24,000 bases of DNA from an uncultured Methanomicrobiales archaeon (GCA_963758915.1 CAVWXH010000003.1:292895-316894), one strand, 5' to 3'; counted from the first letter of the stretch, positions 16,510 through 18,829 are shown. The notes: generated from the sequence alone by a model not told the origin. Made by a program: numbers and translations.

Positions 16510-16522
16510 CGAAAAGTATATA
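16510..16522 (+). promoter_or_regulatory. BRE/TATA-like promoter (CGAAAAGTATATA) placed for a leaderless or near-leaderless transcript starting at ATG 16547
   Basis: A purine-rich BRE-like CGAAAA directly precedes GTATATA. The TATA centre is about 27 nt upstream of the ATG. Confidence 0.45.
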
Positions 16523-16546
16523 CCGTTTTGAATAGTCTTACTTCAC

Positions 16547-17287
16547 ATGGATGAGATTCAGCTAATTGCCCAGAAGCGGGCTTTTCCAAGCAGGGGAAGG
16601 GCCCGGATTCATGAAGACGCCCTCAAGGAGCTCGAAATCGTTGAGGGTGCATCGATTGATATCGGTATATTGGACGCAGAAAAATGGATATCAGCGACTG
16701 CGTTTGCCGACTCCCTTCTTACATCAGGTCATATCCGCCTGAGCGAGGAGGACTTAACCGCACTTGGGGCGAGTGAAGGCTCCACGCTCCGGGTCCGGAA
16801 AACGCCCCCGATGGCCGACCAGATCAAGAGCAGTGTCAAAGGTGCCGGTGCGAGTGTGTCAGCAGGACTTGGTAAGGCAGGAGAATCGATCAAGGGTACA
16901 TCAACTGAGTCAATCAAGGCAGGTGCTGCCGGAGCTGCTTCAAGTGTCAGCACCGGCCTTGGGAAAGCAGGGCATTCAGTCAGTGCTGCTTTCAGCAACG
17001 CGGTTGAGGCTGCAAAAAAGAAACTGAAACCTGCCGATTCAGCGACTCTTGACAAGGCACTGAAGGCAAACAATGGAGAGGTCCGTGCCGTCACGGTCGC
17101 TGCCGGTTCCGGTACCCGCACGATGTCCGGCATTGTACTCCCGAAAGGGGTCGTTATTGCAGCAGTACAACGTGGAGATGCAATCCAGACAACCGATCCA
17201 TCCTTTCTCCTTATAGGTGGGGATATCATCTACCTCGTGGGAGATAGCAGTCTTCTCGATGAGGCCTCAAAGGTAATCGGAGGATAA
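16547..17287 (+). CDS. Protein with a VAT/CDC48-N-like double-psi barrel, a G/A/S-rich repeat linker and a C-terminal TrkA-C (RCK_C) domain
   Basis: Two hairpin half-repeats, GRARIHEDALKELEIVEGASIDI and GHIRLSEEDLTALGASEGSTLRVRK, resemble VAT-N. There is an internal tandem repeat, KGAGASVSAGLGKAGESIKG / KAGAAGAASSVSTGLGKAGHSVSA. The C-terminus ...MSGIVLPKGVVIAAVQRGDAIQTTDPSFLLIGGDIIYLVGDS... is TrkA-C-like. Confidence 0.7.
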   Translation: MDEIQLIAQKRAFPSRGRARIHEDALKELEIVEGASIDIGILDAEKWISATAFADSLLTSGHIRLSEEDLTALGASEGSTLRVRKTPPMADQIKSSVKGAGASVSAGLGKAGESIKGTSTESIKAGAAGAASSVSTGLGKAGHSVSAAFSNAVEAAKKKLKPADSATLDKALKANNGEVRAVTVAAGSGTRTMSGIVLPKGVVIAAVQRGDAIQTTDPSFLLIGGDIIYLVGDSSLLDEASKVIGG

Positions 17288-17288
17288 T

Positions 17289-17675
17289 ATGGACTTGTAT
17301 GCACCACCAGACTGGTTCATCATCGCAATGTTCCTCCTGCTTGCGCTCCTCTTAATTCTCATCGTAGTCTGGGCCATTCGCAGGAGCCAGGGTCACGTCC
17401 GGAAAATGGAGATAGAAGTAGAAAAACAGAAACTCGATCTCCTTGCAAAAGACCTGAACACGCAGGCGAAGGTGCACCCCTTTACCAAGCTCAGCACAGA
17501 CCAGATCCAGTCAATCCGCACTCTTGAGGATGAAAACGAACTCCTTGAACTGAATAACTACCACAAGGAGAAAATCGTCGAGGCGAGGCTCCGGAAGCTT
17601 GAAAACCTGGTGCGGGAAGGAAAACTCGAGCGGATGATCCTGAAACTTGACCTCGAAGAAAAGAAGGTGAAATAA
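17289..17675 (+). CDS. N-terminally TM-anchored coiled-coil protein (128 aa)
   Basis: TM segment WFIIAMFLLLALLLILIVVWAI, followed by charged heptad-like sequence (…EVEKQKLDLLAKDL…RLRKLENLVREGKLERMILKLDLEEKK). The start is 1 nt after the upstream stop. Confidence 0.7.
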   Translation: MDLYAPPDWFIIAMFLLLALLLILIVVWAIRRSQGHVRKMEIEVEKQKLDLLAKDLNTQAKVHPFTKLSTDQIQSIRTLEDENELLELNNYHKEKIVEARLRKLENLVREGKLERMILKLDLEEKKVK

Positions 17676-17980
17676 TGGCTGAATTTGCAGAAGGGACCAC
17701 AGAAGAAAAACAGTCATTCTGGGGTAACATGCCTGACGTCCCGGGGTACCTTGACAAGAAACTGCCAACCATGGACAAGTCGCTGGACACGTACTTTGAC
17801 AAGAACATGGAGGCAATCATCGAGGAATGGGGCCTCCTGGTTGAGAATGATATTCTTGATCTCGAACGACGTGTCAACAAGGTTACCGAGGAAATCGACC
17901 AGCTGTATGACCACAAACATGTCATCAACGAACGGGTACTGAAGCTGGACGCCGTAATCTCGGACCTGGAGGGCAGGTAG
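17675..17980 (+). CDS. Soluble coiled-coil protein, paralog 1 of 3 (101 aa)
   Basis: Shares the motif [DN]xY[FL]D[KR][NR][MF]xx[ILM][IV]xEW (LDTYFDKNMEAIIEEW) plus a downstream coiled coil with the next two ORFs. TAATG overlap with the upstream gene. Confidence 0.7.
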   Translation: MAEFAEGTTEEKQSFWGNMPDVPGYLDKKLPTMDKSLDTYFDKNMEAIIEEWGLLVENDILDLERRVNKVTEEIDQLYDHKHVINERVLKLDAVISDLEGR

Positions 17981-18199
17981 ATGATAGACAAGTATATGAA
18001 CAAGTACCTGGATCGCCGGATGAAATACCTCGTCGAGGAATGGCAGATCGCTACAAAAAATGAGGTGGCAGATTTTTCAGCCAGATTAAATGCACTTTCT
18101 GCTGAAGCTGCGAAACTTGCCACCTTCGAGAAGAATGCGGAGGCAAAACTATCTGCCCTTGAAGCACGTGCAAAGAAACTGGAGGCGAAGAAGAAATGA
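17981..18199 (+). CDS. Soluble coiled-coil protein, paralog 2 of 3 (72 aa)
   Basis: MNKYLDRRMKYLVEEW..., then ...LATFEKNAEAKLSALEARAKKLE. TAGATG junction with the upstream gene. Confidence 0.65.
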   Translation: MIDKYMNKYLDRRMKYLVEEWQIATKNEVADFSARLNALSAEAAKLATFEKNAEAKLSALEARAKKLEAKKK

Positions 18200-18537
18200 C
18201 ACCGCTCGAAATTATCCTCACTATCCTGGTGATTGTCGCTATCATTGTTGCCATCTATTTCTTCTTCAGGGGCGCAAAGGGCAAGATCTCATTGACGCGA
18301 CCGGTTGAGAGCCGGGTAGATGAATATCTTGACCGCAGGTTCGAATCGATGGTGACGGAATGGGCGCTCGTACGGACTCCTGCAGTCAACCGCTTCAAAG
18401 AACAGCATGAGCCGGTGCTGAGTCAGAATGAAGCAAAAGTATCAGAATTACAGGGCTTTGAGAAGGAAATTAACAATTCCCTGTCAAGGATGGAGGAACG
18501 GCTTGACGATCTGGAAAAAGAGCTCTCAAAGACCTGA
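18196..18537 (+). CDS. TM-anchored coiled-coil protein, paralog 3 of 3 (113 aa)
   Basis: TM segment LEIILTILVIVAIIVAIYFFF, then VDEYLDRRFESMVTEW... and ...LQGFEKEINNSLSRMEERLDDLE. ATGA overlap with the upstream gene. Confidence 0.7.
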   Translation: MTPLEIILTILVIVAIIVAIYFFFRGAKGKISLTRPVESRVDEYLDRRFESMVTEWALVRTPAVNRFKEQHEPVLSQNEAKVSELQGFEKEINNSLSRMEERLDDLEKELSKT

Positions 18538-18802
18538 TACGTCCGGGCAGAAAGGGAAGAACAATATCTACCTTGAACTGAAAAAGGAGATAAAACCTCT
18601 TCGTGAACAGGGGGAGTTCCCGACAAAAGTACCGGGGAGTTTCGGAAGGCATTATTGTGACCTCTGCAACTCCACATTTCCTGTTGAAGAGCTCCGCCAG
18701 TGCAGCCTTTGCGGGAGATGGGTGTGTAATTCCTGTTTTACCAACGAATACTACATCTGCAATTCCTGCAACGGGATTACAAAACTCTATATGACCAGAT
18801 AA
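18428..18802 (+). CDS. 8-Cys zinc-ribbon module. As an independent ORF it overlaps the previous gene by 110 nt; alternatively it is a frame-shifted C-terminal extension of that gene.
   Basis: The C-terminal 50 aa contain CDLC-x12-CSLC-x3-CNSC-x7-CNSC. I found no in-frame ATG/GTG/TTG between 18431 and the first Cys codon (18656). A T7 run at 18823-18829 follows this ORF, but none follows the stop at 18537. Confidence 0.5.
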   Translation: MKQKYQNYRALRRKLTIPCQGWRNGLTIWKKSSQRPDTSGQKGKNNIYLELKKEIKPLREQGEFPTKVPGSFGRHYCDLCNSTFPVEELRQCSLCGRWVCNSCFTNEYYICNSCNGITKLYMTR

Positions 18803-18822
18803 CAGGGGTGGGCAGTGAAGGG

Positions 18823-18829
18823 TTTTTTT
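18823..18829 (+). terminator. Oligo-T (T7) candidate terminator closing the 16547-18802 operon
   Basis: gaagggTTTTTTTccc lies about 20 nt after the zinc-ribbon ORF stop. Confidence 0.45.

Follow-up and report, generated by a model that had tools for sequence, protein, structure and literature searches.

Introduction

Phasins, the N domains of Cdc48/p97/VAT, treble-clef zinc fingers, 11-residue repeat proteins such as the apolipoproteins, PRC-barrel division proteins and the phage shock protein (Psp) system are the closest described counterparts of an operon of six small genes, g1 to g6, which we analyzed in a DNA segment of 24,000 nt from an uncultured Methanomicrobiales archaeon (GCA_963758915.1, CAVWXH010000003.1:292895-316894; hereafter the window). 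Hydrogenotrophic methanogens play a central part in the global methane cycle, and many of their conserved genes are without an assigned function. The window comes from a Methanoregulaceae genome, in keeping with the taxon names of homologues, and contigs identical to it are present in ENA and Logan assemblies. None of the six proteins contains an enzyme domain according to profile scans with Pfam, NCBIfam, PADLOC and PHROG, and no characterized multi-protein complex was matched. The initial annotation of the window had noted that no described system has this composition, and none was found in the literature searched; the 2011 paper by Burroughs, Iyer and Aravind, which reportedly defined the g6 family Prok-RING_2, may mention the neighbourhood.

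Phasins of the PhaF/PhaI type (PF05597, TIGR01837) are small helical proteins like g3, g4 and g5, and phasin paralogues hetero-oligomerize through a zipper. The N domain of Cdc48, p97 and VAT (PF02359) and the UT3 domain of Ufd1 are double-psi beta-barrels (DPBB) with duplicated 'G.aR.....l..LG...G..v.v' half-motifs, as is the N-terminal domain of g1. The repeats which follow in g1 share with apolipoproteins A/E, alpha-synuclein, group-3 late embryogenesis abundant (LEA) proteins and perilipins an 11-residue quantum and a periodicity of 96-98 degrees over 70-100 residues, and are likewise predicted to be disordered in isolation. However, the homology to these 11-mer proteins is compositional only, and the g1 repeats are very rich in G/A/S, follow a folded barrel in the same protein and share their operon with genes for membrane anchors. 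The treble clefs of FYVE, PHD and RING fingers have eight Cys in a cross-brace-compatible arrangement, as in g6, whose C-x2-C-x4-C-x2-C core and 'CG..hC..C' stretch are FYVE-like. Finally, the Psp/Lia system (PspA with PspB/PspC) resembles the operon in principle, since small bitopic coiled-coil proteins are combined with a peripheral amphipathic helical protein. Unlike Psp, the operon encodes no PspA/ESCRT-III-like protein, its PspB match is at chance level (E = 0.08), and no homology is claimed.

Results and Discussion

Conservation of the six-gene block

The gene order g1-g2-g3-g4-g5-g6 is retained, as far as the contigs extend, in all 38 loci which were recovered from GTDB species genomes by a scan for RAFPSRGRAR, a peptide invariant in g1 and a single exact pattern that does not make the scan exhaustive. 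Gene order was checked by tblastn with the six window proteins. The loci span Methanoregulaceae, Methanolinea, Methanoculleus and Methanogenium, and the proteins of the latter three are 25-50% identical to those of the window. Among the loci with enough DNA, g6 is present in 34 of 35. Pairwise comparison with eight relatives gave ratios of non-synonymous to synonymous substitutions (dN/dS) of 0.02-0.23 for all six genes (0.10-0.19 for g3 and 0.02-0.19 for g4), which indicates purifying selection. The six-gene block is conserved far beyond chance, and the operon is real because its order is kept in all loci and its genes are under purifying selection. Synteny across related genomes and selection on the small open reading frames (ORFs), both of which the initial annotation had named as checks, thus came out in its favour.

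Two metagenome-assembled genomes (MAGs) carry two copies of the operon, namely LacPavin_0920_WC90_MAG_50_10 (L007 and L010) and ELA446 (L006 and L013). At L010 (968-2929), a gene for an unrelated 240-aa membrane protein follows g5. On a 1.26-Mb contig which is otherwise identical to the window (L002; ERZ25039513 contig_5354), g3 is cut to 78 aa (7129-7437) and the decarboxylase gene of the neighbourhood is split in two (1781-4088), both most likely due to assembly indel errors.

An older pair of membrane-anchored coiled-coil proteins

Protein g2 has a transmembrane (TM) anchor at its N-terminus and, after it, a coiled coil that carries an R-hxxhE motif, and g5 has a highly conserved TM helix (MT.LE..L.......YYYFRG). 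All 32 g2 and g5 sequences show an N-terminal 19-residue stretch with a mean Kyte-Doolittle hydropathy of 2.4-3.1, which is preceded by no Lys or Arg and followed by 3-4. By the positive-inside count this places the N-terminus outside and the helical part in the cytoplasm. Hydropathy and charge distribution thus show one predicted N-terminal membrane helix each in g2 and g5, with a predicted cytoplasmic helical part of ~90 residues, in agreement with the initial proposal of a TM anchor in g2 and in one of the three paralogues, which is g5.

A HMMER search with the g3/g4/g5 profile over 1.84 billion representative proteins gave 334 matches at E <= 1e-3, comprising g3-, g4- and g5-type proteins, generic long coiled coils and a set of distant single-TM relatives (P0339, P0317, P0298, P0315, P0349, P0341 and P0279). 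Directly 5' of the gene of each distant relative lies a gene for a ~135-aa protein with a TM helix and a coiled coil. In hhalign, g2 matched the upstream protein from Methanobacterium at 96.3% (E = 2e-9, 119 columns) and that from Methanopyri at 90% over the EREKL..L..D motif; the taxa, assigned from co-located genes, are Methanobacterium aggregans/congolense-like organisms and a Methanopyri archaeon MAG. When metagenomes were scanned with the methanobacterial relatives, 33 more loci were obtained, with the g2-like gene directly 5' of the g5-like gene in 32 and a truncation in the other one. The genes g2 and g5 are an older, strictly adjacent pair, found in Methanobacterium and Methanopyri as well, in systems from which g1 and g6 are absent. 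This adjacency beyond Methanomicrobiales argues that the pair is ancestral and that g1, g3, g4 and g6 were added in Methanomicrobiales.

In the Methanobacterium proteins P0339 and P0317, a TM helix, G-x-G-E-K repeats, the motif common to g3, g4 and g5 (see below) and a coiled coil are combined in one polypeptide, of which P0309 is a soluble version. The G-x-G-E-K repeats have a helical amphipathic periodicity that is weaker than in g1. Since such repeats are fused to a g5-like protein in Methanobacterium and are carried by g1 here, a Rosetta-stone-type argument suggests that g1 physically belongs with the coiled-coil proteins.

In Methanobacteriales (L052/L053, L060-L092), the pair follows the frh (F420-hydrogenase) operon and a divergent Peptidase_M24 gene (map), and in 6-7 loci it lies 2.6-4 kb 5' of dnaJ-dnaK-grpE. 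The closeness to frh and to the heat-shock operon is probably plain synteny.

The paralogues g3, g4 and g5 and the trimer motif

Proteins g3, g4 and g5 have in common the motif Y[LF]D[RK.][RN][MF]...[IV].EW.L, followed by a coiled coil. Profile-profile comparison by hhalign gave 98.4% for g3 and g4, 96.7% for g3 and g5 and 97.6% for the remaining pair, with E-values from 7e-15 to 4e-10. The three proteins are shown by this comparison to be paralogues, as had been supposed from the start, with g3 and g4 as predicted soluble copies of the cytoplasmic part of g5. A conserved N-terminal LPTMDK segment distinguishes g3, and g4 is the minimal paralogue, consisting of motif and coiled coil only.

The R-hxxhE motif is a determinant of parallel three-stranded coiled coils, if not an exclusive one (PMC3653964). 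In its relaxed form, R-[ILVMA]-x-x-[ILVM]-[E/D], it occurs within the last 40 residues of 62 of the 64 g2-g5 sequences, compared with ~1 per 16 in shuffled sequences, and R-hxxh[E/D] is also found in the distant g2-like/g5-like pairs. The strict form is present in 45 of the 64 sequences and is absent from all 16 of g3. On the relaxed motif, parallel trimers are thus predicted for g2 to g5. Searches against the PDB matched the g3-g5 profile to generic coiled coils only and gave no match for the g2 profile.

A wider set of soluble metagenomic proteins of 90-110 aa (P0264, P0275, P0319, P0325, P0352, P0333 and P0344) carries a related motif, ..D.YL...LP.LI.E[YH].LAT..D...L...F, in which Y, H or F replaces the conserved W, again together with a coiled coil. 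In the metagenomic protein P0327 (320 aa), motif and coiled coil follow ~220 residues which resemble an intein/Hint domain; this may be a chimeric gene call.

Domain structure of g1

The structure of g1 was modelled with AlphaFold2 (AF2) on 14 homologues. Its N domain reached a predicted local distance difference test (pLDDT) score of ~80 and was superposed by Foldseek on the p97/CDC48 N domains and the DPBB of Aeropyrum VCP with E ~1e-7 and a root-mean-square deviation (rmsd) of 1.3-1.7 Å over 83-89 residues, the best superposition being 1.3 Å over 83 residues. The double-psi barrel fold is therefore assigned by structure; in Pfam, CDC48_N (PF02359) scored 18.4 bits in g1 of the window, below its cut-off of 35.1. 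Only the first subdomain, i.e. the double-psi barrel, is present. Unlike Cdc48, g1 lacks the second (beta-clam) subdomain and the AAA+ modules, so that it does not qualify as a Cdc48/VAT AAA+ ATPase with both N subdomains and D1/D2. Its barrel is fused to the amphipathic repeats and, in one clade, to a TrkA-C domain, and at its N-terminus the g1 family has an invariant basic motif of its own, QKRAFPSRGRAR.

Among homologues, the length of the G/A/S/K-rich region varies in steps of 11 residues, with anchor positions at 133, 144, 155, 177 and 199. Its hydrophobic moment peaks at 96-98 degrees in four divergent homologues, a peak that none of 500 shuffles reached. Both observations point to an amphipathic 11/3-helix of 70-100 residues, and some g1 homologues match Apolipoprotein (PF01442).

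The C-terminal domain belongs to TrkA_C (PF02080), with 29.1 bits against a Pfam cut-off of 27, and was modelled as a beta-rich fold with a pLDDT of ~70. The composition initially given for g1, a Cdc48-N-like barrel, a G/A/S repeat and TrkA-C, is thus borne out by Pfam, AF2 and Foldseek. The domain occurs in g1 of 15 of the 38 loci, all from the Methanoregula-like clade, and is absent from the other 23, including those of Methanolinea, Methanoculleus and Methanogenium. Forms without TrkA-C have 138-175 aa and end past the repeats with a conserved KKKL..D tail; a faint FeoA match in these short forms was disregarded, and their alignment shows no extra domain. Being clade-specific, TrkA-C cannot be a core regulator or nucleator, and the earlier suggestion that a ligand-sensing RCK_C protein plays this part had to be given up.

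A proposed assembly on the cytoplasmic membrane face

The best reading of the operon remains a membrane-associated coiled-coil scaffold, as put forward in the initial annotation. In the form which we tentatively prefer, it encodes a non-enzymatic coiled-coil assembly on the cytoplasmic membrane face that docks an amphipathic membrane-surface protein. This model is supported because the coupled genes always occur together, g2 and g5 are anchored, g3 to g5 are paralogous and the R-hxxhE motif is common to the coiled-coil proteins. The cytoplasmic helices would zip into parallel three-stranded coiled coils. Most economically, g3, g4 and g5 would form a heterotrimer that is tied to the membrane through g5 and has g2 beside it or as part of it. 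Such a trimer would form a short stalk projecting from the membrane. As a first adaptor, g1 would dock to the stalk, with the barrel as a peptide- or partner-binding module and the 11/3 amphipathic helix flat on the membrane surface; in the clade of the window, TrkA-C might make binding of g1 ligand-dependent. The second adaptor would be g6, providing a RING/FYVE-like protein (or lipid) interaction module. The output would then be structural, in that the assembly coats, stabilizes or tethers a membrane patch.

Several observations weigh against this model. The g1 repeat region has an AF2 pLDDT of 30-38, so that its folding on contact with the membrane is only inferred. TrkA-C is missing from most lineages, and the second operon copy of one MAG (L010) has g1-g5 and no g6. 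No conserved neighbour gene indicates a process, the flanks differing between genera. The coiled coils and their trimeric state are predictions from sequence, and the mutual binding of the proteins is presumed. The weakest step is the membrane coating or stabilizing role, which is likened by analogy to that of phasins, apolipoproteins, LEA-type proteins and Psp.

What is new lies at the system level, i.e. in the operon and the wider g2/g5 pair, as the individual folds are known and g6 belongs to a catalogued family. The operon spans the order Methanomicrobiales, is under strong purifying selection and is apparently built for fixed stoichiometry. Since its g2/g5 core is found in Methanobacteriales and Methanopyri as well, it probably serves a basic membrane task and not a niche function, and the lack of any enzyme points to structural membrane biology, an area almost unexplored in archaea. 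Furthermore, the operon provides a context for a rare prokaryotic RING-like finger family and a stand-alone Cdc48-N barrel, which is relevant to the origin of eukaryotic adaptor modules. A bolder extension, which is decidedly unlikely, regards the g2/g5 pair and its elaboration as a methanogen-wide membrane-organizing machine, in which an anchored heterotrimeric stalk recruits a curvature- or defect-sensing amphipathic protein, with a Cdc48-N-like barrel and a FYVE/RING-like finger as accessories. If true, archaea would have arrived independently at a way to remodel or tether membranes or to organize division sites, using the same building blocks as eukaryotic membrane tethering, trafficking and endoplasmic-reticulum-associated degradation (ERAD).

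Alternative explanations

A different role for the membrane-anchored proteins could be read from g6, which consists of a short conserved N-terminus (M..W), a helix and a binuclear finger. It belongs to Prok-RING_2 (PF14445; 82.8 bits, cut-off 22.4, E = 2e-23), the match covering positions 2-54 of the 56 in the model, and precomputed matches to this family also exist on its orthologues. Among 15 orthologues, residues C52, C55, C67, C70, C75, C78, C86 and C89 vary little or not at all, which provides two zinc sites, and the zinc ribbon of the initial annotation is accordingly replaced by an eight-Cys RING-like finger. The AF2 model has a pLDDT of 80.6 overall and 88-97 in the core. In Foldseek, its nearest structures were FYVE, RING and PHD fingers, none of them significant (E of at least 0.5 for FYVE), and RING could not be told apart from FYVE or PHD by this comparison. 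The Cys spacing, C-x2-C-x11-C-x2-C-x4-C-x2-C-x7-C-x2-C, is nearer to FYVE/PHD than to canonical RING fingers. However, the Pfam scores for FYVE (17.0 bits, cut-off 27.8) and FYVE_2 (20.4 bits, cut-off 27.2) are below threshold, and where FYVE domains have the basic R(R/K)HHCR motif, which binds PI3P together with WxxD, g6 has (E)LRQC. Leu54 of the CDLC motif is invariant and occupies what we take to be the position of the E2-contacting Ile in RING E3s; a Pro and the linchpin Arg are both lacking near the last Cys pair. Against the PDB, the g6 profile gave a marginal match to the zinc ribbon of TFIIE-alpha (E = 7e-4) and weaker ones to PHD, RING and FYVE fingers, and a word-index homologue search returned 10 close relatives only.

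With the Prok-RING_2 membership, the conserved Cys and the Leu of g6, and with the superposition of the g1 barrel on adaptor-binding p97/CDC48 N domains, the operon might be seen as a proto-ERAD-like quality-control or modification platform. Here, g6 would be a RING E3-like adaptor, and the g1 barrel would bind substrates or recruit Cdc48/VAT-proteasome to a membrane coiled-coil receptor. We consider this unlikely, not only because of the FYVE/PHD-like spacing and the missing Pro and Arg, but also because no gene for an E1, an E2, a ubiquitin-like protein (Ubl/SAMP), a JAB protein or an AAA+ protein lies in or beside the operon in the lineages examined, and E1, E2, Ubl and JAB genes are absent within 6-8 kb in four lineages. 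Moreover, such a platform leaves unexplained the older g2/g5 systems without g1 and g6 and the L010 copy without g6.

As a side observation on g6, two zinc-ligand Cys are replaced (..IRNSWN..) in the orthologue at L006 (7083-7472), which has a C-terminal extension of 30 residues and is probably a frameshifted or decaying copy.

In Haloferax, proteins with a PRC barrel act in cell division, and in CdvA such a barrel is combined with a coiled coil (bioRxiv 10.1101/2023.03.28.534520). Directly 5' of the g2-like/g5-like pair, at the position of g1, one subclade of Methanobacterium has a PRC-barrel gene (L048/49, L060, L061, L068, L070, L072 and L073), and another one precedes the soluble motif protein P0309 at L056/57. 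The genes at L048 (5273-5521) and L056 (2127-2417) encode proteins of 82-96 aa with Pfam PRC matches of E = 1e-12 to 1e-14. The arrangement recalls CdpB1-3 and CdvA, the latter likewise joining barrel and coiled coil at the membrane, and the anchored coiled coils could thus be a cell-division or envelope-positioning scaffold which recruits small barrel adaptors (DPBB here, PRC in Methanobacterium), comparable to CdpB1-3/CdvA with SepF/FtsZ or ESCRT. This, too, is rather improbable: the PRC linkage is limited to 8 of the 41 pair-bearing loci (L048-L055, L060-L092), Methanobacteriales have up to 15 PRC genes in varied neighbourhoods, no ftsZ, sepF or cdv gene adjoins any locus, and the DPBB and PRC folds differ.

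The resemblance to phasins proposed in the initial annotation recurs, with Phasin (PF05597) matches at E < 0.05 in 16 of 48 family members (best E 9.4e-5). Nevertheless, every score is below the gathering cut-off of 28.8 bits (17.7 for g3, 16.2 for g4 and 25.3 for the Methanopyri orthologue P0341), and the match is limited to model positions ~55-125, the C-terminal zipper segment. Family membership was therefore rejected, and what stands is a weak likeness of the zipper part. The g3/g4/g5 motif and first heptads align with the phasin segment 'l..rLglps..dv..L..rv..L', and the motif was also aligned with that of a genuine Acinetobacter phasin (hhalign E = 2.9e-4, probability 40%). The phasin layout of amphipathic surface region plus short zipper is further found in the Methanobacterium relatives P0309 and P0339. 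Together with the Apolipoprotein matches of g1 homologues, these data would fit a coat of a storage inclusion or neutral-lipid body with g3 to g5 as phasins and g1 as a surface binder. This is very unlikely, since g2 and g5, unlike phasins, are integral membrane proteins, the amphipathic region is on the separate protein g1, and no PhaC, PhaE or further polyhydroxyalkanoate (PHA) gene, nor any other storage gene, was found in the neighbourhoods examined. PHA is not known to occur in these methanogens.

The likeness to UbiK that had also been suggested did not hold. A direct comparison of the 48-sequence profile with E. coli UbiK (UbiK/BMFP, PF04380) gave an hhalign probability of 9.6% over 17 columns, and the sole Pfam hint was P0341 with 20 bits against a cut-off of 37.2.

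Regulation of an ion transporter through g1 could be derived from the TrkA_C score above the Pfam cut-off and from weak NCBIfam matches of g1 to TrkA and to the C-terminus of a K+/H+ antiporter. It is most improbable, because TrkA-C is dispensable, the rest of the operon being unchanged where it is absent, and no conserved transporter gene lies beside the operon. That the operon is a mobile, viral or defence cassette, or a set of non-functional ORFs, as the small unannotated ORFs and the duplicate copies in some MAGs might suggest, can practically be dismissed in view of the purifying selection, the fixed order and junctions, the lack of flanking integrases, transposases or repeats at the loci examined, and the lack of relatives in 2.9 million viral contigs; PADLOC and PHROGs each returned one chance-level coiled-coil match only.

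Operon layout and expression signals

In support of the membrane-associated assembly as the product of one transcription unit, the fixed gene order and tight junctions across loci argue for a co-transcribed and tightly coupled operon. The six ORFs lie where they were first annotated (Table 1), and the four junctions quoted then (+1 nt, TAATG, TAGATG and ATGA) are exact. From g1 to g6, the junctions are +1, -1, 0, -4 and -35 nt, and a GGAGG or GGTGA sequence precedes each internal gene by 6-12 nt. The 35-nt overlap of g6 with g5 follows from the conserved start of g6, which is preceded by GGAGG at a distance of 7 nt: the N-terminal M..W is conserved, five distant orthologues start with ATG, and a gene caller picked the same TTG on an identical contig. 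In nearly all loci, this overlap measures 29-38 nt, with extremes of 44 nt (L014) and 56 nt (L036).

The putative promoter element ends 24 nt upstream of the g1 ATG. Close relatives have the identical element, and in the loci of Methanolinea, Methanoculleus and Methanogenium a TATA-like, A/T-rich box lies equally far from the start codon. This short distance, kept across clades, suggests that g1 is leaderless or near-leaderless. A run of at least five T within 90 nt past the g6 stop is present in 26 of 37 loci. Antisense ORFs such as 17491-18123 and 18470-18904 are shadow ORFs, one of which is called in place of g6 on some contigs.

Table 1. Features of the operon in the window (nucleotide positions of the window, or residues of g1 where indicated).
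Feature	Position	Strand	Length	Basis or remark
BRE/TATA-like promoter element (TFB recognition element plus TATA box), cgaaaagtatatac (cgaaa + agtatatac)	16510-16523	+		sequence
g1	16547-17287	+	246 aa	
g1, Cdc48/VAT-N-type double-psi beta-barrel	residues 1-88			AF2 and Foldseek
g1, G/A/S/K-rich amphipathic repeat region (predicted)	residues ~89-160			indel and hydrophobic-moment analysis
g1, TrkA-C (RCK_C) domain	residues 181-244			Pfam
g2	17289-17675	+	128 aa	
g3	17675-17980	+	101 aa	
g4	17981-18199	+	72 aa	
g5	18196-18537	+	113 aa	
g6	18503-18802	+	99 aa	from TTG 18503, within ORF 18428-18802; stand-alone protein
Oligo-T (T7) run, likely archaeal terminator	18823-18829	+		21 nt past g6 stop

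Genomic neighbourhood

Directly 5' of the operon, a membrane-anchored metallophosphoesterase (Pfam Metallophos) is encoded at 15219-16115 (+), an arrangement which is syntenic in close relatives. In three distant Methanolinea-like loci (L030, L033 and L035), a metallophosphoesterase gene lies 2-3 kb 5' on the opposite strand, and remnants are found at L006, L009 and L011. The adjacency could be a functional link or plain synteny.

Scans of the window with Rfam and for tRNAs gave no match. Further genes of the window encode an archaeal Nre protein with N and C domains (3462-4631, -), an N-formylglutamate amidohydrolase (4740-5621, -), a CdhD-like protein (8700-9893, +) and a DUF2703 protein (685-1068, +), none of which shows linkage with the operon in other genera. 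The genes for a 768-aa Orn/Lys/Arg decarboxylase (OKR_DC_1) and a 482-aa amino-acid permease lie side by side (10881-14636, -) and form a pair of the acid-resistance type. On the other side, the gene at 19517-20713 (-) encodes a 398-aa surface protein with two PKD domains and Thr-rich mucin-like stretches, whose length varies between 398, 295 and 263 aa among otherwise identical contigs.

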